From contig CBDDPL010000004.1 in assembly GCA_965232285.1 (NCBI GenBank), forward strand, positions 1,623,893 to 1,687,892: 64,000 bases of DNA. The letters run 5' to 3'. This document shows, in pieces, positions 9,985 through 40,953 of the stretch (position 1 is the first letter of the stretch; every line of letters starts with the position of its first letter). This stretch comes from Denitrobaculum sp. GTDB lineage: Bacteria > Pseudomonadota > Alphaproteobacteria > Kiloniellales > Kiloniellaceae. Under the pieces are notes generated by a model. It was not told the origin of the DNA. It saw only the letters and a program-made list of their open reading frames with translations, and did no database searches. The translations under genes were made by a program, and so were the position numbers.

Positions 9985-10862
9985 CGAGCGAATTGCAAGA
10001 CGGGACCATAAGCGACGAGATCCTGGTCGCCTACCTGGACGGAGAACTGCCCGAGGGTGAGCGGTCGCGCGTGGAGACTGCCCTCGAACGGGAGGAGGAG
10101 CTCCGCGACCGCCTGGCGCTGCTGGACGACGGTGCGCGCCCTTGGAAAGACGCCTTTGCCGGCCTTGTAGATCAGGCGCCGCTTGAAAAGCTGGAAGCCG
10201 GTCTGGCGGAAGCGGTCCGGCAGCAGGAAACCGAGCTGGCCGATAAAGCTGTGGCCGATAAAGCTATGGCCGAGACGGGGGTGATCCTCGGCGAACCGGC
10301 AAACGATCATGTCGCGACGCGCTGGTGGCGCCCGGCAATGGCGGCCTGTGTCGCCATTACCCTGCTGATCGGTTTCGCCGCCGGCTACGGCACCAACGAG
10401 GCGCAGAAGACGCAGGTGGCGGAGGCTGCACCCAGCGAGGCCGAAATCTGGCGCCAGGCAGTTGCCGACTATCAGGCACTCTATACGCGCGAAACCCTTT
10501 CCATTGCGCCGACGGATCCGGCGATCCACGCAGCCGGCCTGCAGCGGGTCTCGAAATCGCTCGGATTGCCTCTCCCCGTGGCGGTGTCCGAGGTCGGCGG
10601 ACTGGACTACAAGCGCGCACAGATCCTTAAGTTCGGCACGCAGCCGCTCGCGCAGCTCGCCTATCTCTACAAGGATGAGATTCCGGTCGCCTTTTGTATC
10701 GTAAGGCTGGACGAAGTCGATCGTGCCGCGGGCAATGAGGTCCGCAGCGGCCTGAACATCGTTCATTGGGCAAAGGACGGCTACAGCCTGATGCTGGTTG
10801 GAGATCTGCCCGTCGAAGAACTGAATGATTTCGCCCGTGAACTCGAAGGGCGGATGATCTGA
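9981..10862 (+). CDS. anti-sigma factor (single-pass membrane)
   Basis: ATGA overlap with the sigma gene. N-terminal LVAYLDGELPEGERSRVE anti-sigma motif. One central TM helix (WWRPAMAACVAITLLIGFAAGY). Periplasmic C-terminal domain. Confidence 0.7.
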   Translation: MTSELQDGTISDEILVAYLDGELPEGERSRVETALEREEELRDRLALLDDGARPWKDAFAGLVDQAPLEKLEAGLAEAVRQQETELADKAVADKAMAETGVILGEPANDHVATRWWRPAMAACVAITLLIGFAAGYGTNEAQKTQVAEAAPSEAEIWRQAVADYQALYTRETLSIAPTDPAIHAAGLQRVSKSLGLPLPVAVSEVGGLDYKRAQILKFGTQPLAQLAYLYKDEIPVAFCIVRLDEVDRAAGNEVRSGLNIVHWAKDGYSLMLVGDLPVEELNDFARELEGRMI

Positions 10863-29424: not shown

Positions 29425-30723
29425 TTACTCCTTTTTTAGTCTGCTACTCACCCTGATCTCGATGCGACGCAGGTCCCGATTGTCAACATTCCGTTGCCTG
29501 GCCGCGATTTTGTAAGTCGTTGGCTGAAGCTGACCGGCGGAGTAGGGCACAATCGGAACTGTGCTGTACTCACCACCGAGTTGATTACGTAAGAAGTTGG
29601 CGGTGATTGCGGCGCGAGATAACCCCAACCCTGCGTTGTCACAGGCCCTCAATGATAATGATTTCTTTTTTTTGTTCAAACCCCTAGTGAGATGCTGGTT
29701 GAGATAGGGAACGAGATTGTGGTCCAGATCACTGGTACATTTCCATTTACCTCCGCTTTTGTACGGCAGGCCATCAGTATGACCAATTACTTCAATGACG
29801 GCTTGGGCGCCATTCTTTGTAATCTTTTTTATTTCATTAATAACAGCAGTCCTTCCCGCGACGCGTCGTTTCCCATCTAAGGACCAGCCGCTTATGAAGG
29901 TTCTCCGAAAGTCAGACGAGATTGAAGATTCGCTGCGTTGGAATGTGTATCCATCCTTGTCTGTTAGAAACAGCGATGTGGGCTGGTTAACTCTGGGAAT
30001 GCACTGCGCTGGATCTGGGCCGCAATTGGTTTTGTACTTGCCGAGTTCTACATCAGCTTTACCGGCCTCAGCCTTTGGGACGCAACCTGTCCGATCGTTG
30101 CCGCAGAGGTCGACAAATTCCTGAAGACGTTTTTCGAGATTCCGATGGTCTTCGAGCGACACGCAACCGTCGACCGTGGTGCCGCAAAGAAAGATGAACT
30201 CGTCCAGGTCATTTCTGACGGAATTGTGCTGTGAAATTTCTCTACAGTCATCCGGTGCGTTACCGCAGCGCTCAATAAATCGTTGGAGGAGGCCCTTAAG
30301 GTTTCGATAATCTTCCTCGGGCACACAGCCTTCCGTCGTCGGACCACAAAGAGAAATGAAATTGTCCAGTTCATTCTTCACTAAACTGTATCTTGGCAGT
30401 CCTACGCATTTGTCCGGTGTGCCGTCACAAAGTTTGTTGAAGATCTTGAGGGCAGCCGAAACACTGTCGTGTTCACTGCGTTCCACACATTCATCACCAT
30501 CTTTGCCGCATTTTTCAATCAAGTGGGCGAACTGCTCGATGCCTACGCACTTCTCTGGATCTTCGCCACAGGCTGCGCTGTATTGTTCCGCCAGCAATCC
30601 TTCGGTTGCCCAGACACTGCCGAGAAGGATTAGGCAGAAAAACAGAAAGAACAGGACAATTTCGCTCAGCGAAGTTGCAACGACATCCTCGTGATGACGT
30701 TTCTTAAAACGCCCTAGTCTCAT
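29425..30723 (-). CDS. MotB/OmpA-like protein: N-terminal TM helix with embedded Glu, eight C-x6-C repeats, C-terminal OmpA-type peptidoglycan-binding domain
   Basis: TM SLSEIVLFFLFFCLILL (Glu21). Repeats CGEDPEKC, CGKDGDEC, CDGTPDKC, CGPTTEGC, CGNAPDDC, CGTTVDGC, CGNDRTGC, CGPDPAQC. OmpA blocks VIGHTDGLPY, NAGLGLSRAAITANFL, DLRRIEIRV. Confidence 0.8.
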   Translation of the reverse strand: MRLGRFKKRHHEDVVATSLSEIVLFFLFFCLILLGSVWATEGLLAEQYSAACGEDPEKCVGIEQFAHLIEKCGKDGDECVERSEHDSVSAALKIFNKLCDGTPDKCVGLPRYSLVKNELDNFISLCGPTTEGCVPEEDYRNLKGLLQRFIERCGNAPDDCREISQHNSVRNDLDEFIFLCGTTVDGCVSLEDHRNLEKRLQEFVDLCGNDRTGCVPKAEAGKADVELGKYKTNCGPDPAQCIPRVNQPTSLFLTDKDGYTFQRSESSISSDFRRTFISGWSLDGKRRVAGRTAVINEIKKITKNGAQAVIEVIGHTDGLPYKSGGKWKCTSDLDHNLVPYLNQHLTRGLNKKKKSLSLRACDNAGLGLSRAAITANFLRNQLGGEYSTVPIVPYSAGQLQPTTYKIAARQRNVDNRDLRRIEIRVSSRLKKE

Positions 30724-32648
30724 GGTTCGTTCCTCAATCTAAGCCAACGGAGAAAACGCCGTGCTGCCCGCCCCAGCCGTGAGGAACGCTCGCTTTCCGC
30801 GCCATCCTTATTTTCTGCTTCTGTGAACACACGAAATTCTGACATCATCTTCTCAAGCGATGTACGCAGTTCGGCTAGATTGGCTGACAGGTCGGTTAAC
30901 TTGTCGCTGTGGACCTTTAGCCAATCTGGGTCGAATGCGGTGCCAGAGAGTTCTTGCGTGAGCCGACCGAAACCTTCGGTCACCAACTTCAGCGCTTCCT
31001 GGTTTGTGCCGAGGGCGTCGGAATACTTAGTAAACTCCTTGCTCAGGCGTTTTACGTCTTCGGCGTTCCCGCCAATCGCAGCATTGGTATCGCCGAAAGT
31101 CTTCACCAGTTCTTCGAGGCTTTGGTGGATCCGCCCGCTGTCTTCGGATATCCCGATGACTACCCGGTCGATAGCTCGCCCAAACTCGGCGTTGAATTCC
31201 TCGAAGGCGTTCGTGCCAATCTTCTCCGCCAAGTCCTGAAAACCGGAATCAACCCTGGTCCCACCGCTCTCGATGACATTGGTCAGGCTATCGATGGCTT
31301 GCTTGCTGTTCTCGCCGCCAGTCTCCAGGGTTGCCTTCAGGCGCAACAACTCGTTGCCAAGCTCACCTTTGCCGCTATCAATGGCGCCTTTGAGGTCGCT
31401 CAGTGAGGAGCCAGCGCCTTCTGTGTGATTGACGATCGTCTCCTGGAACCCGGTCAGCGCTGCCGCACTGCTCTGCGCGCCTTCGGTTATTGTATCGGCA
31501 AGTTCGCGCAGTTCGTCGGCAACAGCCTTCGCGCGCTCAAGTACCTCTTCGCGTCGTGTCCTTAGGGCCTCGCCGAGCGCCGTGATCTCCGCATCGACGC
31601 GCGCCAAGGCGAGCTTAGCCGCTTCTGCCATCTGCTTTGCGATCAGCTTCTGATCTATCTCGACGTTGGAAATTTCCTGCGCTTTGGTCTTCAAGTTGCC
31701 GGCCACTTCGCCAACAGCGTCCTTTATCACTTGGCCGGAACCGGAAACCGCTTTCTTTGTGTGGTGCACTGTGGTCCGGAAAGTTTTGACGCTTATTGAC
31801 AGCGTATGAAGTTCGGCGGTTGCCTTGTTAACATGCTCCCGGAGAGTGGCGATAATCTGCTCGTCGTCGACGTCCTCTTGGGCGGTGATTGAGAGAACAA
31901 GTACCTGACGAAGGAAGAGCGCAAAAACCGTTGATGAGAGGGCAATAGCATTCTGCATGACAACTGTCGACAGAGTGACACCGGCGAAACGGCCGGACTG
32001 ACTTAGCGCAAAAATCAGGCTTATCAGAGTCAGAATAAAGCCAAAAAAGTAAATCGAATCGGCCCATTTCCTCTGAGCCTCTGGTCCTTGGTTAGGAAAC
32101 AAAAGAAATATAGTGTGTATTACTTCAAATAAGATGTTTGTGCGGGGTAAGTAGCGATTTACAGGCTGTCGAAGTCGGCATATAGATAAATAGCTAAAAT
32201 ACAGTAAAACAAAAATCCCATTCGCAACCGTTACCCTAAATATATCTGATGTTATTATTTGTCCCTCGAAATGCCTTCTGAGCTTTTTATCGTCTAGTTT
32301 TTTTTGTTCATGAGGGTTTTTTAAGTCATCTGGTAAAGGTATGCCGGCATCGGAATACTTTTTTGTAAGTTCAAAATTCGTGAGATCCTTTTTGTCGATC
32401 TGCAACGCATTAAATGTAGAATAGATAGCTTCTGAAATCGGTTTCTGTTCAACTATGTCGGCATAGAAGATGCCAGATACTTGTGGTCCATCCGGATCGG
32501 TTGTTGCTGGTAGTTGAGCGTAAAAGTTGTATGTTGCGGCAAATCCAACAAAAATCATGAAAATCAGAGTGAGAACACACGCGGCGCCTGTACTCTCTCT
32601 GGGGGGGGCGTTTGCACCACTCACTGATGGTGAATCTAAAGCTGTCAC
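30720..32648 (-). CDS. MotA/ExbB/TolQ-like membrane protein with ~390-aa C-terminal coiled-coil tail (ZorA-like architecture)
   Basis: TM helices at about aa 22-43, 138-157, 171-185, 198-216 and 224-254. SIYFFGFILTLISLIFAL ... QNAIALSSTVFALFLRQV resembles the conserved helix pair of the MotA/ExbB channel. The tail is A/E/K/L/T-rich. ATGA overlap with the downstream gene. GTG start uncertain. Confidence 0.7.
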   Translation of the reverse strand: MTALDSPSVSGANAPPRESTGAACVLTLIFMIFVGFAATYNFYAQLPATTDPDGPQVSGIFYADIVEQKPISEAIYSTFNALQIDKKDLTNFELTKKYSDAGIPLPDDLKNPHEQKKLDDKKLRRHFEGQIITSDIFRVTVANGIFVLLYFSYLSICRLRQPVNRYLPRTNILFEVIHTIFLLFPNQGPEAQRKWADSIYFFGFILTLISLIFALSQSGRFAGVTLSTVVMQNAIALSSTVFALFLRQVLVLSITAQEDVDDEQIIATLREHVNKATAELHTLSISVKTFRTTVHHTKKAVSGSGQVIKDAVGEVAGNLKTKAQEISNVEIDQKLIAKQMAEAAKLALARVDAEITALGEALRTRREEVLERAKAVADELRELADTITEGAQSSAAALTGFQETIVNHTEGAGSSLSDLKGAIDSGKGELGNELLRLKATLETGGENSKQAIDSLTNVIESGGTRVDSGFQDLAEKIGTNAFEEFNAEFGRAIDRVVIGISEDSGRIHQSLEELVKTFGDTNAAIGGNAEDVKRLSKEFTKYSDALGTNQEALKLVTEGFGRLTQELSGTAFDPDWLKVHSDKLTDLSANLAELRTSLEKMMSEFRVFTEAENKDGAESERSSRLGRAARRFLRWLRLRNEP

Positions 32649-32952
32649 AGCGAAATAGCCAAAGTTGCATTTTAAGAAAGACAGGAACGCTAATGGCGAA
32701 TCGATGTGTTGGCAACCCCTTTTGCTTGAATATATTAGATTGGCAATATTCTATAAGTTGCTAAATTTAAGTTAGAACTGGCAAGTGAAGTTGATTGTTT
32801 GTGCCGCTGGCTGTCCTGACGACTTTGTAAGCTCTACGTTTTTCGATTTGCGGTAAACGGCTAAGCACGCTCTGATTTGCTACAATCTGGGATGTTGGAA
32901 TCTGCTCAGTCGGAATCTGCTGCCAAGTCGTCACAAAGATTCCTTGGGTCCT

Positions 32953-33208
32953 TAATTTTCTGATGTATAATTCATTGGCACGAAGATAATAAAATTAAAA
33001 ACTTTGGATAATTTTTTTATTTATTTTTTCATGAATAATAATTAAAACAATATATAATAAATTATTTAATTGTATTTCATAAAATTATTGAATTTTCCGA
33101 AATATTACATCTTAATAATTTGATTTGATGTGGATTTGACAGAATTTTACTAATTTTAAAGTAAATATATGTATTTTCGATAAATATAAATTTTAACAAA
33201 TTTTAATT
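32953..33208. other. extreme AT-rich tract (~250 bp, about 85-90 % A+T by eye)
   Basis: TTAATTTTCTGATGTATAATTC...AATAAAATTAAAAAC...TAAATATAAATTTTAACAAATTTTAATT. Lies upstream of the ZorA-like operon. Confidence 0.85.
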
Positions 33209-33340
33209 GCTGGCTTTCTTGTTTTTGCGATCTTTGCTTTTTTGACGTTCTTCATAGCTTTCGGCTAAATACAGCGCTAGCAGAAAGGGAGCTGCAATCA
33301 ACACCATCAACAAGAAGGGGTTGGCCAAAATACTCATCAT
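33203..33340 (-). CDS. possible 45-aa membrane peptide
   Basis: Not in the ORF track (<60 aa). ATGATG start preceded by GGAAGGATTGAGG. Translates to MMSILANPFLLMVLIAAPFLLALYLAESYEERQKSKDRKNKKASN: one TM helix plus a basic tail. Confidence 0.35.
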   Translation of the reverse strand: MMSILANPFLLMVLIAAPFLLALYLAESYEERQKSKDRKNKKASN

Positions 33341-33552
33341 CAACCTCAATCCTTCCGATCACCAAAGTTGTAGAAAACCAAACAGATGTACTTGTTGTTT
33401 GCTAACATCGCGTTAAGATTGTGCAAGATATTCGATATATATTTGAATCAATTTTTTGCTATTTTACTTATTATAAAATACCACGCTTAGCGTATTAGTA
33501 AATACGCTTCTGAATATTGTCCCAGAAAGAACACAACTCGCTTGAGTGGGTT

Positions 33553-33616
33553 GGGGTCCGGTCTTGTTTTGTGCATAAGCGGTGCTGAAAAATGAAGGAA
33601 ACAAGATCTGGCCCTA
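33553..33616. repeat. palindromic junction element, copy a
   Basis: Left arm GGGGTCCGGTCTTGTTTTGTGC, spacer with CTGAAAAA, diverged right arm GAAACAAGATCTGGCCC. Confidence 0.7.
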
Positions 33617-33651
33617 AATCTCTGTCAGAGTGAGCAGTCTTTCCCGGCTTA

Positions 33652-33957
33652 CTAGAAACCATCAAGCAGAACGAAGATCGGCAGGAAGATGGTCATCATA
33701 GCGCCCATGACGTATAAGCCGCCGATGTAGGTCCAGAAGAGGCGCGGATTTTTGCTTCTGTAAATCCAGGCGCCGCCCGATCCGGGAGACGCGAAACCGC
33801 GCTTGATGTCGCGCAGCCCAATGAAAATGACGGATACACCCAGCAGCACGGGGACGGGCAACGCCCAGATGGTCTTGAGGTAGAGAGGGAAGAACTCCTG
33901 CAACAGACAGCCGTAGGCCAGGGCCGCGCAAAAGGAGATGAGGAAAAACTTAAACAT
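33652..33957 (-). CDS. 101-aa three-TM membrane protein, copy 1
   Basis: MFKFFLISFCAALAYG...; three hydrophobic helices. About 94 % identical to the product of 39058..39363. Confidence 0.65.
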   Translation of the reverse strand: MFKFFLISFCAALAYGCLLQEFFPLYLKTIWALPVPVLLGVSVIFIGLRDIKRGFASPGSGGAWIYRSKNPRLFWTYIGGLYVMGAMMTIFLPIFVLLDGF

Positions 33958-34082
33958 GGCGGCGCTTCCCAGGGTTTAGACGGCTTGCAGCGGGGTGACT
34001 GTCGATCCGTGCAGCTTTGTCAGACCTTTGCGCAAAAGCCCTTCGAACGACTTCTTTACCGCATTGTCTTGAATTGTATGTG

Positions 34083-34176
34083 CCTGTGGGGTCAGGTCTT
34101 AAATTGTGCCTGTGGGGTCAGGTCTTAAATTATGCGCAAGCGAAGTTGAAAAAGCACAAAACAGGACCTGACCCTA
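34083..34176. repeat. palindromic junction element, copy b (left arm tandemly duplicated)
   Basis: 26-nt unit CCTGTGGGGTCAGGTCTTAAATT(G/A)TG x2 (34083-34134). Spacer AAGCGAAGTTGAAAAA. Right arm GCACAAAACAGGACCTGACCC (34154-34174). Confidence 0.8.
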
Positions 34177-34306: not shown

Positions 34307-35026
34307 CTAAGTGAGTTGGCGTAAGGCCGACCTGCGCCGCCGCACGAAGCCGAGGCCCGCGAGACCGAAACCGAAGAGCGCCAGCGTGGCTGGTTCAGGC
34401 ACGGCGGCGATGTCAGGAATGTCGACGAAATCCGGCACCGAAGGATCAATTCTGACCTGCTGTAAGGCGAGTGTCGCGTTATCGTCCAGGTCGAACAGAA
34501 CGTTGTTAAAGTGGATGTCGAGAAAGCCGAGGCCGGGGGCCAATCCCGCCTGTTTCTGGCTGACGTCAAAACGCCAGGTCAGTATGCCGGCGTCAAGCAG
34601 CACAGGCCGATCAAAGATGTTGTCAGCGAATACAGAAACGTCGGGGGCGCCGCCATCGAGGCCGGTGAACAGCAGATCGCCATCCTCCCGTGGCCAAGTT
34701 ATTTCCGCATTGTTGCTCGTCGTCGCGAAGGTGAGCGTGATTTCCCAGGGATTTGGCGGGGGCGGAAAGCCGGGGAAGGGCGGGGGGCCAAAACCAGGAT
34801 CGCTCAACACGATGCGTGGGCCGAAAAGGATATCGATATCTGTCGTGGCGGTGCCAGTGGCATTGAGTGGAATAACGCCTGCACCTCCATTGACGTCGAT
34901 GCAGGTAGCGCTGCCGTCACAGGCAGCGACGGAAACATCGTCGGGGGTGAGAGTCAGCGCATGGGTTGCCGAGGCACCGCATAGCAGGAAGATGCTAGTA
35001 AAGCCTAATGCAAATAACCGTTTCAT
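34307..35026 (-). CDS. PEP-CTERM sorting-domain secreted protein
   Basis: Signal peptide MKRLFALGFTSIFLLCGASATHA (start ATG 35026). C-terminal VPEPATLALFGFGLAGLGFVRRRR = PEP motif + TM + basic tail. Confidence 0.8.
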   Translation of the reverse strand: MKRLFALGFTSIFLLCGASATHALTLTPDDVSVAACDGSATCIDVNGGAGVIPLNATGTATTDIDILFGPRIVLSDPGFGPPPFPGFPPPPNPWEITLTFATTSNNAEITWPREDGDLLFTGLDGGAPDVSVFADNIFDRPVLLDAGILTWRFDVSQKQAGLAPGLGFLDIHFNNVLFDLDDNATLALQQVRIDPSVPDFVDIPDIAAVPEPATLALFGFGLAGLGFVRRRRSALRQLT

Positions 35027-35270
35027 AATGTGAACCCTCCAGTTATTTGTTTGTAGGCTATTGATGCTTGCCGGCGCCGTCATTCCTCGAAATTCGAATA
35101 GGGCTATACAGGATTTTTGCAACGCTTTGGCGCAAGCGATGGGAGCCCGCGTGAATGAGCGGGACTATCCACAGGCGGAGCTTTGTTTCCGCGCTGCGGC
35201 CGCCATTGGAACGCGCAGGCGCCGATCAAGGATCTCTTCTGATCGAAACAAGCAGCGCAAGGAGCAGGAG

Positions 35271-35901: not shown

Positions 35902-35942
35902 AAAGGGACGTGATGTTGCTGGGTTAAGTTTCACGTCCCTTT
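35902..35942. terminator. bidirectional terminator-like hairpin between cupin fragment and Hint-domain gene
   Basis: 12-bp stem AAAGGGACGTGA/TCACGTCCCTTT with a 17-nt loop. The A/T ends of the stem give short U tracts in both directions. Confidence 0.4.
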
Positions 35943-36062: not shown

Positions 36063-38276
36063 TTAGTGCAGCGTTGTTCCTTTGGAGTGGTTCTGCATCA
36101 CCGCTTCCCGCGTATTGGTTTCTCTGGTGTCACCTTGGTCGCGGATTACTGGTGAACCTTGATTGGGTGCAGTCTGCTGGTCGGGATCAGTGCTTCTGAG
36201 TGCTATGGGTTCATTCCGGGGCATGAGTTCCAGATTGGGCTTCAAGCGCAGTTGGAGCGACCCGTCCTCCAGCTGCAACGGCGGCGGCATGGTGGGGTGT
36301 ACAGCTTCCCATTCGCTTGCTTTGTAAATGTCCTCCAAAGAGGTGGCTGAGCGCGCCAGAACGAAGTCTTCGGGCTTGGGAAGGCTTTCGGAGAGCACCC
36401 ATACAAAGGGCATTATGATGCCGGTCTGTTTCCAGAGAGCATAGCCTTTATGCGGGCCGTCTTTGAGAATTTCGATCCCGGCGCTTTCCATGTACTCGCG
36501 CATGGAAAGGTGCTGGCCGTTCGGCATCATCCAACGGGTGCCAAAGCGTAGCATGGTCTTATCGCCGACGCGCTCGCTGCCCGTACTGTCCTCGTAAAGC
36601 TTGAAGGCCCAAAACTCCTCGTCATCGGGCGAGCCTACTTCACAGCCTGTGGTGGCGCGAACCAGGGTGCCGTCCTGACGCTGGATGACGCCATCGTCGC
36701 GCAAAATATCGATGATAGGGACGTGCTGACCCTCGTACTTGCCGCCCGCGCACCAGTAAACGTGGCCGGGCGTGACGAAAGTTCCGTGGAGATCAAGAAT
36801 GATCTTCGCCTCGTTGGTCATCGTCCGAGTAACGTTGCCGGGCTTGAGGTTGCCCTGAGCGTCGAAGGCGACAACCGTGTCGGTTGGTGTGATTTCTTCG
36901 ATGGCCTTCTGCCAGATATTAGCTCGCACCGCCGCCTCGTCATATAGCCCGTCCGGTCCCGGTCTGATCGAAGAGTCCAGCGGCCACATATCGATCATCG
37001 TACCGGCCGTGAAGCAGTGCGAAATAGGTATGATTTTGAGCTCATCACCGTCGGCGACAACGGTATACTCACCCTCTTTAAACTCCAACTCGTTTTCAGC
37101 GTAGGATTTATAAAGGTCGACGATATCGTCTAAAACAAGCGGGTTCCCACCATTCGCATTGTCTTGGAGCAGTTTAACCGCCCCTGCACCAAATTCTGCT
37201 CCTGCGTTGCCGCCGATCGTACCTCCGAGATAGGCGATCACGGCAAGTGTGGCTATCCCACCCGCTGTTGTCAGCGGTTCCGGCGCAGCCACTGCAAGGG
37301 CTGCCGCTGTGGCGACCCAAGTGCCGACTGCGGAACCAGCCAAATCCCCAAATGTACCGAATATGAGCTGTTCTGCGCCCGCCTCATTGCCGGCAACATA
37401 CAATTGCCGGGCCTCCTCGAAGGCAAAGGCCACGTGCAACACATCTCCTACAACCCCTGCCGCACTCAAGACGCGAGCGTTGCCTAGAATGTTGCCGAAT
37501 GTAGCCGGTGTTAAATTGAGATCTGCGATCCTATTTTCGAGTGCAAGATTCTCGAACCTTCTTACGGTAGAAAGCCTGCCGGCATAGCCTGTAACTTTTA
37601 AGCCGTCAAAGAGCCAGGCCGAGGCGAAAGTCTTGAAGTTATTAGCAACTGCGTTGTAACGGTCCGTTTCGCTAGTAAAGCCGTCACGAACTTCAATCCG
37701 GTCAATGCCGTTGATCTGATTAACGGCCGTATTATTCTTCAAAGTCTCGAGTTCAATTGACCGGAGATATGAACCTGTCCCCGCGCCCTCTGTGAGAACC
37801 ATAACATCGCCCGAAACATTCTCGGCGAAGCGTTGCGAAGAGATCCAACCCATGTCGCCGCGTTCACCCTTCCACCGCGGATCTTCCCCTTTCGACCAAT
37901 CCACACCCGTGATGACTTGCTTGTTGTCTTGCGACATTTGGATAGCGTCTTCGACGTCCGTGCTGTTTATAAACTGGCCGAGTTCGGTGTCGTCCAAGCG
38001 TTGAAACACAGTCGGATTAGTGTTCGCCAAGTCTCTGGCGGTTTTCCATGCCTCTGCTTCGTGGCCTCTTAGGCGCCTGTATGGGTTCGACCCCGCATAG
38101 AATAGCGGTGTTACACCGCTTGGGAGATCTACAGAGAGGTTGCGCACCGCCAGTTCGTAGAAGTTGCCGTCCAGGTAATCACCGGCGGCATTTGCGTCTC
38201 TTACGACGTCGAGCACTTCGCTCACAGTCGCCTTTGTCCAGTCAGGGATTCTGCCGCTGTAATCGAACTCCGCCAT
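36063..38276 (-). CDS. Hint (Hedgehog/intein-like) domain protein with glycine-zipper hydrophobic segment; polymorphic-toxin-like
   Basis: Hint N-terminal block HCFTAGTMIDMW (Cys421) and TPGHVYW block. aa 300-365 are G/A-rich and hydrophobic (GTFGDLAGSAVGTWVATAAALAVAAP...LGGTIGGNAGAEFGAGA). N- and C-terminal domains not recognised. Confidence 0.85.
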   Translation of the reverse strand: MAEFDYSGRIPDWTKATVSEVLDVVRDANAAGDYLDGNFYELAVRNLSVDLPSGVTPLFYAGSNPYRRLRGHEAEAWKTARDLANTNPTVFQRLDDTELGQFINSTDVEDAIQMSQDNKQVITGVDWSKGEDPRWKGERGDMGWISSQRFAENVSGDVMVLTEGAGTGSYLRSIELETLKNNTAVNQINGIDRIEVRDGFTSETDRYNAVANNFKTFASAWLFDGLKVTGYAGRLSTVRRFENLALENRIADLNLTPATFGNILGNARVLSAAGVVGDVLHVAFAFEEARQLYVAGNEAGAEQLIFGTFGDLAGSAVGTWVATAAALAVAAPEPLTTAGGIATLAVIAYLGGTIGGNAGAEFGAGAVKLLQDNANGGNPLVLDDIVDLYKSYAENELEFKEGEYTVVADGDELKIIPISHCFTAGTMIDMWPLDSSIRPGPDGLYDEAAVRANIWQKAIEEITPTDTVVAFDAQGNLKPGNVTRTMTNEAKIILDLHGTFVTPGHVYWCAGGKYEGQHVPIIDILRDDGVIQRQDGTLVRATTGCEVGSPDDEEFWAFKLYEDSTGSERVGDKTMLRFGTRWMMPNGQHLSMREYMESAGIEILKDGPHKGYALWKQTGIIMPFVWVLSESLPKPEDFVLARSATSLEDIYKASEWEAVHPTMPPPLQLEDGSLQLRLKPNLELMPRNEPIALRSTDPDQQTAPNQGSPVIRDQGDTRETNTREAVMQNHSKGTTLH

Positions 38277-38753
38277 TTAACTCTCATCTCCCTGGATGTA
38301 CTGTCCCTGATCCAAGGCGGCTTGGAACTGCTTTGAAAATTCCACCGTCGCCGTTTGTTTCTTGCCAAGTCGGGCACTTACCCAATTACGATTGAATTTG
38401 GTCAGCATGTCCGTCAGAAGCCTTACCGCGCGGTCTTGCTGTTCGCGACTGGTGAAGTGGTTGCCGAGCGCCGAGAGGCCGGAAAAGCGCCAGAACGCAA
38501 GCACCGGAGGATCGCCAGTTGGGTTTTCTTCCCGCCGAAACTCGTACGGCAGGCCGCCAGGTCCCCCGAATTCGATCGGATGCCCGTCAAGATGTAGGAC
38601 AAGGCAATGATACGTTCCGCTTGCGGAGCCGACACCAACCTGTTCCAGGTAGGTGTCGGGCTGATCCGTCGATATTCGATGCGAATCACGCTCGACCCAA
38701 AATTTAATACCGTCACGGGATGTATGGATAATGGGACCGAGCTTTGCGTTCAA
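38277..38753 (-). CDS. 158-aa hypothetical protein, translationally coupled upstream partner of the Hint protein
   Basis: Its stop TAA is immediately followed by the ATG of the 737-aa gene (TAAATG). No family recognised. Confidence 0.6.
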   Translation of the reverse strand: MNAKLGPIIHTSRDGIKFWVERDSHRISTDQPDTYLEQVGVGSASGTYHCLVLHLDGHPIEFGGPGGLPYEFRREENPTGDPPVLAFWRFSGLSALGNHFTSREQQDRAVRLLTDMLTKFNRNWVSARLGKKQTATVEFSKQFQAALDQGQYIQGDES

Positions 38754-38924: not shown

Positions 38925-39022
38925 CGAATCACCAGGGTCAGGTCTTGTCGAATCACCAGGGTCAGGTCTTGTATTGTGCGTGAACAGAGTTGAAAAAAGG
39001 CACGAAACAAGATCTAACCCTA
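38925..39022. repeat. palindromic junction element, copy c (left arm tandemly duplicated)
   Basis: 24-nt unit CGAATCACCAGGGTCAGGTCTTGT x2 (38925-38972). Spacer with GTTGAAAAAA. Right arm GCACGAAACAAGATCTAACCC (39000-39020). Confidence 0.8.
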
Positions 39023-39486
39023 AATCTCTGTCAGGCTGAGCGGTCTTTCCCAGCTTACTAGAAACCGTCGAGCAGAACGAAGATCGGCAGGAAGACGGTC
39101 ATTATAGCGCCCATGACGTATAAGCCGCCGATGTAAGTCCAGAAGAGGCGCGGATTTTTGCTTCTGTAAATCCAGGCACCGCCCGATCCGGGAGACGCGA
39201 AACCGCGCTTGAAGTCACGCAGCCCGATGAAAATGACGGATACACCCAGCAGCACGGGGACGGGCAACGCCCAGATGGTCTTGAGGTAGAGAGGGAAGAA
39301 TTCCTGCAACAGATAGCCATAGGCCAGGGCCGCGCAAAAGGCGATGAGGAAAAACTTAAACATGCCGGCGCTCCCCAGGGTTTAGACGGCTTGCAGCGGG
39401 GTGACTGTCGGTCCGCGCAGTTTTGTCAGACCTTTGCGCAAAAGCTCTTCGAAAGACTTCTTTACCGCATTGTCTTGAATTGTATG
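38958..39486. repeat. 0.53-kb direct repeat, copy 2 (contains 101-aa gene copy 2)
   Basis: Collinear with 33553-34080. Confidence 0.85.
39058..39363 (-). CDS. 101-aa three-TM membrane protein, copy 2
   Basis: Differs from copy 1 at about 6 of 101 residues. Confidence 0.65.
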   Translation of the reverse strand: MFKFFLIAFCAALAYGYLLQEFFPLYLKTIWALPVPVLLGVSVIFIGLRDFKRGFASPGSGGAWIYRSKNPRLFWTYIGGLYVMGAIMTVFLPIFVLLDGF

Positions 39487-39810
39487 GACTTTCCGGGCTT
39501 TCGCAGCGTTATTCCCTAGCAGCGCTTTCCTGTTAAATCGTAAAGAAGGCCCAGCGCGCTCTTCATGCCAAGCGACTTTCCCAGGGGCGGGCGGCGCAGG
39601 TGGATCAGGCGAAGTTCGCCGGGTGACCGGCGGTCTTTTGCGGCCCGCAAGCTGCGTCATCGGCGGCGGGCGCCGGGGGAGGTCGATGTCCGCGGAATTC
39701 TTTATGGCGAGGGTAAAGAAAAGCCGCGATTTAGCTGGACTGCAGCTACAACCCCACCCAGTTTGTTCTATCCATGGCCGTTCGGCCGTTGGCGCAGCAG
39801 GGTGAGGATC

Positions 39811-40953
39811 ATGACGCAATCAAAGGACTTCGGCTTCGGGACGCAGATCCGCAAATCCCCCTATTTCGATGCGACGCTCCGCTGGGGCGCCAAGGGCTTT
39901 TCGGTCTACAATCACATGTACATTCCCCGCGATTTCGGGGATCCGGAGCAGAACTTCTGGAACCTGGTGAATAACGCGATCCTCTGTGACGTGGCCGTGG
40001 AGCGGCAGGTCGAGATCACCGGGCCGGATGCGGCCGCCTTCACGCAGATGCTGACCCCGCGCGATCTGTCGAAAATGGCGGTCGGTCAGTGCAAATACGT
40101 GCTGATCGTAAATGCGGAGGGCGGCATCCTGAACGACCCGGTCCTGCTGCGTCTGGCGGAGAACCACTTCTGGATCTCCCTGGCCGACAGCGACATCCTG
40201 CTCTGGGCGCAGGGCGTGGCCGTGCATTCGGGGCTCGATGTCACCATCCGCGAACCCGATGTCTCGCCCCTGCAACTGCAGGGCCCGAAATCCGGCGAGG
40301 TGATGAAGGCGCTGTTCGGCGAGAGCATCATGGAGCTGCGGTATTACTGGCTCCGCGAGCTGGAACTGGATGGCATCCCGCTCATCGTGTCGCGTACGGG
40401 TTGGTCCAGTGAACTGGGCTACGAGCTTTACCTGCGGGACGGGTCGCGTGGCGATGAGCTGTGGGAAAAGATCATGGCGGCGGGGCAGGCCTTCGGCCTG
40501 AAGCCCGGCCATACCTCTTCGATCCGACGGATCGAGGGCGGCATGCTCTCCTATCACGCCGATGCGGATATCCATACCAACCCCTTCGAGCTCGGTCTCG
40601 ACCGGCTCGTCAACCTCGAGATGGAAGCCGACTTTATCGGAAAGGCCGCCCTGCGCCGCATCAAGGCGGAAGGCCTGCGCCGCAAGCAGGTGGGGCTGGT
40701 GATCGAGGGCGCGACGCTGAAGGGACCCAACACGCGATTCTGGAGCGTCACCAAAGCGGGCGCCTCGATCGGCAAGGTCACCTCCGCCGTCTATTCGCCC
40801 CGGCTGGAGCAGAACATTGCGCTGGCCATGCTGTCGGTTGAGTTCGCGGAGATCGGCACAGTGGTCGAGGTCGATACCGGATCCGGCACTGTCAGCGCCA
40901 GGATCGTCGAGCGACCTTTCTATGACCCGAAGAAGAAGCTCGCTATGGCCTGA
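39811..40953 (+). CDS. GcvT-family aminomethyltransferase, DmdA-like clade
   Basis: Start ATG 39811. RKSPYFDAT...GFSVYNHMYIPRDF...LCDVAVERQVEITGPDA...GQCKYVLIVNAEGGILNDPVLLRL..HFWISLADSD matches the block order remembered for DMSP demethylase-type GcvT homologues. Confidence 0.8.
   Translation: MTQSKDFGFGTQIRKSPYFDATLRWGAKGFSVYNHMYIPRDFGDPEQNFWNLVNNAILCDVAVERQVEITGPDAAAFTQMLTPRDLSKMAVGQCKYVLIVNAEGGILNDPVLLRLAENHFWISLADSDILLWAQGVAVHSGLDVTIREPDVSPLQLQGPKSGEVMKALFGESIMELRYYWLRELELDGIPLIVSRTGWSSELGYELYLRDGSRGDELWEKIMAAGQAFGLKPGHTSSIRRIEGGMLSYHADADIHTNPFELGLDRLVNLEMEADFIGKAALRRIKAEGLRRKQVGLVIEGATLKGPNTRFWSVTKAGASIGKVTSAVYSPRLEQNIALAMLSVEFAEIGTVVEVDTGSGTVSARIVERPFYDPKKKLAMA

Follow-up and report, generated by a model that had tools for sequence, protein, structure and literature searches.

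The subject of this study is a two-gene operon on the reverse strand of a 64,000-nt stretch of the genome of Denitrobaculum sp. (Alphaproteobacteria, Kiloniellaceae; contig CBDDPL010000004.1, positions 1,623,893 to 1,687,892), referred to below as the window. The operon encodes a protein of 158 amino acids (aa) and, downstream of it, a modular protein of 737 aa, the query, whose parts are listed in Table 1. A first-pass annotation made from the sequence alone had described the two open reading frames (ORFs) as translationally coupled, and the TAA|ATG abutment is real (...GAGAGTTAA|ATGGCG). Its reading of the flanks and of the export markers also holds, in that no same-strand ORF lies 3′ of the 737-aa gene, where only a hairpin with a 12-bp stem is found, and that no signal peptide and no RTX, Rhs, PAAR, type VI (T6SS) or type VII (T7SS) secretion system family was detected for the 737-aa protein with Pfam, NCBIfam and PADLOC. 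Searches of Pfam, NCBIfam, PADLOC and PHROGs gave no significant family for either protein. With a Shine-Dalgarno-like GGAG, its own start codon, the coupled upstream partner and the terminator-like hairpin, the query gene is a complete ORF.

Table 1. Parts of the operon, with positions in the window and the basis of each assignment; residue numbers are those of the 737-aa protein (ARC, ADP-ribosyl cyclase; BIL, bacterial intein-like; CTD, C-terminal domain; AF2, AlphaFold 2)
Feature	Position	Strand	Basis
737-aa modular protein: ARC-like putative toxin head, hydrophobic hairpin module, N-terminal half of Hint, conserved CTD, tail	36063-38276	-	ORF
158-aa ORF, TTG start, abutting the putative toxin gene; candidate cognate immunity protein for the ARC-like head	38277-38753	-	ORF and junction
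aa 1-~215: ADP-ribosyl cyclase (CD38/ARC)-like putative toxin domain; E175 codon 37752-37754	37632-38276	-	Profile matches
aa ~255-400: conserved central module, two G/A-rich hydrophobic helices	37077-37514	-	Common to long family members
aa 421-543: N-terminal half of Hint/BIL domain; block A Cys421 codon 37014-37016; block B T502-P-G-H505 nt 36762-36773	36648-37016	-	Invariant residues
aa 544-700: conserved CTD of ~150 aa, no known homologue	36177-36647	-	Conservation, AF2 model
aa 701-737: polar tail, poorly conserved, low model confidence	36066-36176	-	Alignment and AF2
Hairpin, 12-bp stem, terminator-like but without a T run, ~120 nt past the stop of the putative toxin gene	35902-35942	-	Read from the sequence

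Variable N-terminal heads on a conserved C-terminal module

A word-indexed search with the full-length protein gave the query alone, the G/A-rich segment having probably swamped the candidates. An exhaustive HMMER search with the same protein retrieved 636 representative relatives, 503 of them at E values below 1e-10. Among the best 150 of these 636 matches, the top-scoring stretch lies inside aa ~419-700, with a few matches reaching upstream to aa 262-293; it starts mostly at or near His420-Cys421 and is C-terminal in proteins of 350-720 aa. Searching with aa 400-737 added 227 further proteins, nearly all annotated 'hypothetical', from Roseibium, Roseovarius, Leisingera, Phaeobacter, Epibacterium, Erythrobacter, Mesorhizobium and many metagenome-assembled genomes (MAGs). 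The shared region, from the Cys to the CTD, is called the C-module here. In a 70-member alignment, C421, F422, T502, P503 and H505 are invariant and conservation extends to ~aa 690, and in a wider set of 304 sequences, which includes members without a neighbouring RTX partner (orphans, see below), the Cys is kept in 278 of 278 and the Thr and His of block B in 302 of 302. Because they are invariant across relatives, the motifs at C421, T502, P503 and H505, which lie where the first-pass annotation had placed them (Cys421 within HCFTAGTMIDMW, nt 37019-36984; TPGHVYW at aa 502-508, nt 36773-36753), are not due to chance. The most conserved part of the family is aa 544-700, with a mean column identity of 57%.

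The N-terminal parts behave in the opposite way. Our survey covered 80 distinct loci of marine Alphaproteobacteria, taken both from reference genomes and from MAGs and spanning Rhodobacterales, Stappiaceae, Cohaesibacter, Ahrensia, Minwuia, Pelagibius, Aureimonas and others, and the regions N-terminal to the Cys fell into 53 clusters among 75 genes. The head domains recognised in relatives are antibacterial effector domains of classical types and include TseH, Tlde1/YkuD, phage lysozyme, Peptidase_M91 and DUF6973, an AHH nuclease (24.0 bits, cut-off 22.3), and Mbeg1/lipase-like domains; all recognisable toxin domains in the family are N-terminal. Within single genomes, C-modules that are 99.4-99.8% identical at the nucleotide level stand beside unrelated heads, as in the two Ahrensia genes L041.0 and L041.1, or in Thioclava, where the C-module of the orphan L042 is 99.8% identical to that of the RTX-linked L040; many other paralogous C-modules within one genome are only 40-85% identical. 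A single scaffold sharply joined to many unrelated toxin domains is a feature of polymorphic toxins, and the first-pass annotation was right to call the protein polymorphic-toxin-like. The classical layout of a conserved N-terminal trafficking region and a variable C-terminal toxin is, however, not what is found; the family shows polymorphic-toxin behaviour with the polarity reversed, the toxin being N-terminal and the conserved module C-terminal.

This finding bears directly on the mechanism that the annotation had put forward, namely a classical polymorphic toxin in which Hint autoproteolysis frees a C-terminal toxin at aa ~550-737. That model could draw on the Cys and TxxH motifs preceding a region of ~190 aa of unknown fold. 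Since hundreds of relatives have kept aa 544-700 and differ in their N-termini, aa ~550-737 is not a variable toxin but the family core, and the search for variable C-termini among homologues turned up invariant ones instead, the outcome that the annotation itself had named as speaking against its model. The protein moreover has no C-terminal His-Asn cleavage motif, and the recognisable toxin domains sit at the other end. Release of a C-terminal toxin is thus very improbable.

The ARC-like head and the upstream partner

The N-terminal domain of the query, called 'unrecognised' in the first-pass annotation, indeed gives no ARC match when used singly, and a separate search for its homologues found nothing; at the profile level, in contrast, it is placed with ARC/CD38. 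Head relatives on the same C-module are L009 (28% identity over 380 aa, E = 4e-24), P0064 and P0057. A five-sequence profile (A7) searched against the PDB gave Tac1 (9OUF, 1.3e-7) and the Pantoea ARC toxin ARCtox (9RO8, 3.7e-7), followed by the Aplysia ADP-ribosyl cyclase (6.8e-5 over ~160 residues) and CD38 (~3e-3), and a reduced profile of the query and its two closest relatives (A10) was led by the same two toxins (6.6e-4 and 1.3e-3). E175, part of SIELETL, does not vary among the head relatives and falls in the alignment on the Glu of IELPRL/VELPRL (9ouf, 9ro8) and of YELPNL (Aplysia), the residue that is catalytic in the Aplysia cyclase and in CD38. The head and the ARC toxins have in common the core motif S..[FY]A..VSG[DE]V...IEL..L....V, the catalytic Glu included. 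In the solved ARC toxins the aligned Glu is catalytic, and Tac1 and ARCtox have been shown by experiment to deplete NAD(P)+, to be antibacterial and to be neutralised by adjacent immunity proteins (PMC12356396, PMC12605009). The curated ARC model PF02267 gave no match in the query, and 18.7 bits in the relative P0057 against a cut-off of 25 bits. From the profile matches and the aligned Glu, the query head is most likely a CD38-like NADase.

The only relative of the query head from outside the family is a free-standing 282-aa 'hypothetical protein' encoded on a Gloeothece verrucosa plasmid (L084; NC_014534.1, 181067-181915), which has the ARC-like catalytic core in common with it (46% identity over 59 aa, pairwise E = 5e-13). 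Its gene lies downstream of a type IV secretion system (T4SS) coupling-protein gene on this conjugative plasmid. A match of the query N-domain to a designed, duplicated HisF half-barrel in the PDB had a per-domain E value of ~3 and is attributed to chance. Structure prediction of the segments, which the annotation had recommended, was informative for one end of the protein: confidence was high in the C-module (predicted local distance difference test, pLDDT, above 90 for aa 429-649) and poor for aa 1-420 (mean pLDDT 52), where the Foldseek output was meaningless and any claim about the fold was dropped.

Between the head and the Hint region lies a G/A-rich hydrophobic segment, which had been described as a glycine zipper. 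Both the hydrophobicity (Kyte-Doolittle peaks at aa 267-287, 311-332 and 334-359) and the spacing of small residues (16 [GAS]xxx[GAS] motifs in aa 295-360) are real. The module is ordered as AGVVGDV, two G/A-rich helices with a PEPxTT loop between them, and NGxPLxxDD, and it is common to long members with differing heads (P0033, P0042, P0057, P0063, P0064, P0119 and L009). Hydrophobic segments accompany heads that act in the cytoplasm (ARC, AHH nuclease) and are missing in six of seven TseH, lysozyme and Tlde1 members. By analogy with PAAR-transmembrane (TM)-ARC toxins, and judging from a small sample, the hydrophobic helical hairpin would probably help the toxin to cross the inner membrane of the target. 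A PHROG tape-measure match on aa 205-390 (3.7e-4) was weak and was treated as probably compositional.

The 158-aa partner has no Pfam, PADLOC or PDB match, the PDB having been searched by profile as well. Its coupling, to which the first-pass annotation had attached importance, proves to be meaningful when the family is considered as a whole. In most cases the family gene is tightly coupled to an ORF of 100-250 aa upstream of it (gap -25 to +20 nt). The family to which this ORF belongs changes together with the head (upstream cluster 4 goes with head cluster 0, 3 with 3, and 6 with 8), and one locus (L005) has three paralogous copies of it. The 158-aa protein has a single detectable relative, to which it is similar over the full length (phmmer 8e-7, BLASTP 2e-6). 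The ORF of this relative immediately precedes the family gene of L009, the only locus whose head is homologous to the ARC-like head of the query. The 158-aa ORF thus fits the pattern expected for a cognate immunity gene and is a candidate for one; its product is predicted to represent a new family.

A Hint domain in two halves and its possible use

Curated Hint-type Pfam and NCBIfam models gave no match to the query even at E ≤ 1, because the region at nt ~36642-37016 (aa 421-545) amounts to no more than the first, N-terminal half of such a domain. In relatives, the Pfam Hint-type models (Hint, Hom_end_hint, Vint, Hint_2) likewise cover only positions ~1-65, from the Cys on. The query has block A, with C421 as the nucleophile at the domain start, and the T-x-x-H of block B (T502, H505). 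The Hint domain that had been proposed to begin at Cys421 is therefore Hint-related, with invariant C421 and TPGH, but consists of the N-terminal half only, blocks F and G being absent from the protein. Nor is the protein the annotation's own alternative, a Rhodobacter-type Hint_2 surface protein: PF13403 does not match the query and matches four of 70 relatives weakly (best 3.7e-4), over positions 2-47 only.

The missing half was found in neighbouring genes. Clustering of neighbours over the 80 loci revealed that in 14 of them the family gene is closely followed by a gene for a HlyC-family acyltransferase and that giant RTX ORFs of 1350-2500 aa occur in 18, and genes for the ABC and membrane fusion protein (MFP) components of a type I secretion system (T1SS) lie nearby in L007, L037, L065 and L075. 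At residues ~30-120, the giant RTX ORFs bear a near-invariant (K/R)VYNFEV..H(T/N)Y(I/V)A(D/G)G(I/V)RVHN-x-S, i.e. Hint blocks F and G. A hidden Markov model (HMM) of these blocks found this C-terminal piece (C-piece) in 25 distinct loci of the 80 (E = 1e-12 to 1e-21), almost always on the same strand a few hundred nt downstream of the family gene and usually past the gene for the HlyC-type acyltransferase. Alone, the C-piece matches positions 107-133 of 137 of PT-HINT and positions 133-155 of 155 of Intein_splicing. No nucleophile is conserved at the position that follows His-Asn, which is T in under half of the C-pieces and otherwise K, Q, D, E, M or R, and Ser at +2 is invariant.

Two other small ORFs recur close to family genes. 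A GNAT-like protein of ~177 aa (PF00583, a weak match at E = 0.0096) is encoded in place of the HlyC-type acyltransferase between the family and RTX genes in L040, L056 and L028, in the first of which its ORF starts 16 nt downstream of the family gene. A conserved ORF of ~70 aa lies 4-5 nt downstream of 12 family genes, whatever the head (L003, L014 at 10541-10756, L016, L018, L020 with two copies, L024, L028, L029, L030, L033, L035 and L046); it has the motif H.PE....LYGIEV.D, and many of its products end in ...LN. This ORF is found in loci without HlyC or RTX genes and is not present at the query locus. The idea that it could be a degenerate C-piece ('LYGIEV', 'VYRIEL') found no support, as the C-piece HMM gave no match and hhalign a probability of 7%.

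That the two halves are complementary can be seen where they are joined. At one MAG locus (L071), the only case in cis, a single ORF of 911 aa comprises a head, CFLAGT...TPGH, the CTD, a linker and KIYNFEVAQYHNYNADGIHVHN|DS; when the insert is taken out, this protein matches PT-HINT with 30.0 bits over positions 9-130 of 137 (cut-off 27.7), whereas the N-half alone gives no match. Joining the halves of the split locus L067 in the same way raises the PT-HINT score to 28.3 bits, against 12.9 for the N-half alone. A profile of 10 joined pairs matched BIL2 (6tmm/6y75) in the PDB at 6e-8 across the whole domain, as well as the Mtu RecA mini-intein (2.6e-4) and the Clostridium thermocellum BIL domain 2lwy (3.7e-4), while a profile of the N-half reached BIL2 at E = 0.035 and over the first half of the domain only. 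The CTD lies between both Hint halves in the fused ORF and so occupies the position at which inteins carry an insert or a split site. A related and contiguous domain is known from Ruegeria (R.) pomeroyi, where exoproteomics detected a secreted RTX protein of 2,164 aa, YP_168868, whose predicted intein 'NNCFVAG...YNFEVEDFHTYIADGNRVHN' is contiguous and ends at residue 359, and found peptides throughout the protein except in residues 149-372 (PMC2953401). This gap is consistent with excision of the Hint region in vivo.

We lean towards the view, which we hold to be moderately probable, that the query is an orphan 'warhead' belonging to a polymorphic toxin system of marine Alphaproteobacteria that has reversed polarity, depends on a split Hint domain and is linked to RTX proteins and the T1SS. 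We infer catalysis in trans, the export route, toxicity and immunity from sequence comparison, and they would fit together as follows. The NAD(P)+-degrading, CD38-like head and the hydrophobic hairpin would be joined at Cys421 to the Hint N-half and the CTD. The RTX-encoded C-piece, with blocks F and G ending in His-Asn, would associate with the N-half as in a split intein, Cys421 would make the thioester and the terminal Asn would cyclise, and the toxin head would be ligated onto the RTX carrier or else cleaved jointly with it. Head and carrier would then leave the cell via the T1SS, giant RTX proteins being type I secretion substrates, and the product of the upstream 158-aa gene would act as the cognate immunity protein. 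One carrier may serve several heads bearing the same C-module, and orphans such as the query gene may use a carrier encoded elsewhere, which is supported by the 99.8% identity of the L042 and L040 C-modules and by KLH11, where three family genes and one RTX gene with blocks F and G share a locus. In its most specific form the proposal is that a split BIL is the coupling device, such that warheads scattered over the genome, each with its own upstream immunity gene, dock on the C-piece at the RTX N-terminus and undergo trans-splicing or concerted trans-cleavage, the query being the CD38-like NADase warhead. Polymorphic toxins would in that case be put together after translation, with a polarity opposite to that of every described system; this version we offer tentatively, as possible rather than probable.

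Several observations weigh against this view. Neither the query protein nor any other part of the 64-kb window has blocks F/G ending in His-Asn, as judged by the C-piece HMM and the motif, and there is no RTX, HlyC or T1SS gene in the window and no HemolysinCabind match in the query. About half of all loci are orphans, and no C-piece lies in the 10 kb downstream of the four closest C-module relatives (L001, L005, L006 and L007, 57-69% identity), although the family gene of L007 comes immediately after a cluster of giant RTX, ABC, MFP and HlyC genes, the N-terminus of this RTX protein being beyond the locus. Canonical splicing is not assured, because no nucleophile is conserved at +1. In the AlphaFold model the N-half and the CTD fold confidently by themselves, unlike typical isolated split-intein halves, and the Foldseek likeness of the C-module to Hint folds is weak. 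T1SSs normally export unfolded chains. Finally, the ARC homology of the head exists at the profile level only, the query N-domain having no ARC match in the PDB when searched singly.

Some of these points would be expected if the N-half and CTD were instead a complete, divergent unit acting in cis like the Hedgehog 'Hog' domain, which would cut at Cys421 and free the N-terminal toxin, which might bear an adduct selected by the CTD, so that no RTX partner would be needed. Most loci, the whole query clade included, lack an adjacent C-piece, the catalytic Cys, Thr and His are conserved, and AF2 gives a compact and confident model of aa 429-649 without a partner. The top Foldseek match of this model is the Hedgehog autoprocessing domain 1at0 (169 aligned columns), but with E = 0.064 it is not significant; the matches to Hint folds as a group (1at0, Npu DnaE, BIL2) have E values of 0.06-1.8, TM-scores below 0.3 and root-mean-square deviations of ~20 Å. 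Sequence models detect just the first Hint half in the C-module, and the CTD gave neither a sequence match by profile against the PDB nor a significant fold match with Foldseek, so that nothing Hint-like is seen in it. A profile of the whole C-module also had no match in the PDB, because it is made of half a Hint domain and a CTD of no known match. The CTD is moreover present beside genuine blocks F and G in L071 and is therefore no replacement for them, and orphan and RTX-linked C-modules can be identical. For these reasons we regard a self-sufficient cis unit as rather unlikely.

It could also be that orphans are not deployed at all and are reservoirs, the C-module serving as a homology handle by which heads and immunity genes are swapped into an RTX-linked locus, as for orphan CdiA-CT and Rhs cassettes. 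The nearly identical C-modules beside unrelated heads in single genomes would be explained in this way, a 530-nt direct repeat brackets the query locus, and resolvase and transposase-like genes lie near several loci. Against this, orphans are complete ORFs with their own start, GGAG, coupled partner and terminator-like hairpin, their catalytic residues are perfectly kept, and the many same-genome C-modules of 40-85% identity are too diverged for efficient recombination. As the sole role of orphans such a cassette seems improbable, and it is compatible with delivery on an RTX carrier rather than exclusive of it.

A different export route, in which the C-module would be a recognition domain for a bacteria-killing T4SS or for a T6SS adaptor, or else a non-RTX signal for a T1SS, and the Hint domain would free the toxin only after delivery, appears decidedly improbable. 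RTX, HlyC and T1SS genes recur in the neighbourhoods of the 80 loci and T4SS and T6SS genes do not, a search of 72,556 plasmids found no C-module family member on any of them, and it would be left unexplained why the missing Hint blocks begin adjacent RTX genes. The layout, with a variable antibacterial head at the N-terminus, a conserved domain at the C-terminus and a putative immunity gene upstream, nevertheless mirrors that of the Xanthomonas X-Tfe effectors with their C-terminal XVIPCD domains and upstream immunity genes; TseH and Tlde1 heads are known T6SS effector domains, the family gene of L007 comes right after ABC-MFP-HlyC, and the only outside relative of the query head adjoins the T4SS coupling-protein gene of the Gloeothece plasmid.

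Surroundings of the operon and comparison with known systems

The operon is part of a 4.9-kb segment, containing in addition a PEP-CTERM gene and a cupin gene, that is bracketed by a direct repeat of ~530 nt (33530-34056 and 38945-39466, 94-95% identity), which suggests a duplication or insertion event. Each repeat copy holds a 101-aa ORF with three TM helices (33652-33957 and 39058-39363), of which a collection of 15 billion proteins has three members. At the edges of the large repeats are short tandem repeats of ~26 nt with the core AAGACCTGACCC (33554-33592, 34089-34153 and 38935-38997), which could be a repetitive extragenic palindromic (REP)-like element or binding sites. The PEP-CTERM sorting-signal protein (271 aa, 34307-35122, reverse strand; PF07589, 1.2e-7) is weakly similar to the flocculation protein PepA. 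A tract of ~900 nt (32650-33540) that separates the second 101-aa ORF from a 642-aa ORF has ~25% G+C in a genome of ~60% G+C. The 642-aa ORF belongs to an overlapping gene pair without a Pfam family (29425-32648, reverse strand), its product having N-terminal TM helices, a long coiled coil and a weak PADLOC match to the ZorA tail (4.5e-5); the 432-aa product of the other gene has an N-terminal TM helix, about eight Cys-containing repeats of ~33 aa and an OmpA/MotB-like C-terminal end. From these features the two may form a MotAB/Zorya-like membrane pair. On the other side, a gene for a GCV_T-family aminomethyltransferase (DmdA-like; 39565-40953, forward strand) adjoins the repeat, and genes related to dimethylsulfoniopropionate (DMSP) are found in related loci too, in keeping with an origin from marine Alphaproteobacteria.

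If trans-acting split Hint domains are indeed used as proposed, they would be the first natural split Hint or intein employed beyond housekeeping genes and a new way for many interchangeable toxins to share one delivery device in bacterial warfare. The abundant giant RTX exoproteins that dominate the exoproteomes of the Roseobacter group would gain a function, and type I secretion would join the delivery routes of polymorphic antibacterial toxins in the ocean. CD38-like NADase toxins would be extended to Alphaproteobacteria, in a new architecture and with a new candidate immunity family, and hundreds of natural split-Hint pairs with a 150-aa accessory domain would become available for protein-ligation technology. 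Even without trans-splicing, the family of reversed polarity, with its hundreds of mostly 'hypothetical' clusters, is useful for annotation.

The head resembles Tac1 and ARCtox by its profile-level homology, with the core motif and the catalytic Glu, and the Pantoea ARCtox likewise joins TM helices to its ARC domain. In both toxins, however, ARC is C-terminal to LXG, PAAR or CdiA trafficking domains and the immunity gene (Imm74 or another) is downstream, whereas in the query ARC is at the extreme N-terminus and the unrelated partner is encoded upstream. In the polymorphic toxins with PT-HINT (PF07591; Zhang et al. 2012, PMC3482391), the model that the C-piece and the reconstituted domains match best, a Hint-type domain likewise links an exchangeable toxin to a conserved scaffold. 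Toxins of many types, immunity-like genes next to them, the presence of several copies in one genome and sharply bounded recombination are shared as well. The family described here differs from them in its N-terminal toxin, its upstream putative immunity gene, the division of Hint over two genes, and the junction residue, which is the first Cys of Hint rather than its last Asn; RTX/T1SS is not among the HINT-associated routes in that survey (PMC3482391).

With the split inteins of 'fractured genes' (cyanobacterial DnaE; Dassa et al. 2009, PMC2677866) the family shares Hint halves on separate genes, a canonical insert-site split, often a gene in between, and the conserved Cys1, TxxH and terminal His-Asn. 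The hosts of those inteins are replication enzymes, whereas here they are toxins and an RTX exoprotein, with many N-exteins per C-half; the N-half here also has an extra domain of 150 aa, and the +1 nucleophile is not conserved. The best solved-structure matches of the reconstituted domain are BIL domains, from Tetrahymena BUBL (BIL2, 6tmm/6y75) and C. thermocellum (2lwy). BILs occur in secreted or hypervariable bacterial proteins, often without a +1 nucleophile, and favour cleavage or non-canonical ligation. To our knowledge, the known BILs are contiguous, and none has been reported to be split or to carry such an insert domain. In the Hedgehog Hog domain, too, the cargo is N-terminal to Cys1 and extra sequence lies C-terminal to the Hint core, but the Hedgehog Hint is complete, with the extra region following the fold instead of interrupting it, and its Foldseek match to the family is non-significant. 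Closest in setting is YP_168868 of R. pomeroyi (Christie-Oleza & Armengaud 2010, PMC2953401), from the same bacterial group, with the same NNCFVAG block A and YNFEVEDFHTYIADGNRVHN block F/G, N-terminal in a giant T1SS RTX protein; its Hint is contiguous (~170 aa, no CTD) and on one polypeptide with the RTX part, and no toxin head or immunity gene was noted. This contiguous domain was the sole related item in the literature that we searched on split BILs, RTX-Hint proteins and reversed polymorphic toxins, where no description of the family was found. The parts of the system, i.e. BIL/PT-HINT domains, split inteins, RTX/T1SS, ARC toxins and polymorphic toxins, are known, and the searched literature does not describe their combination: an exchangeable N-terminal toxin, a Hint that is divided in two and carries an insert domain, an upstream putative immunity gene and a giant RTX partner.

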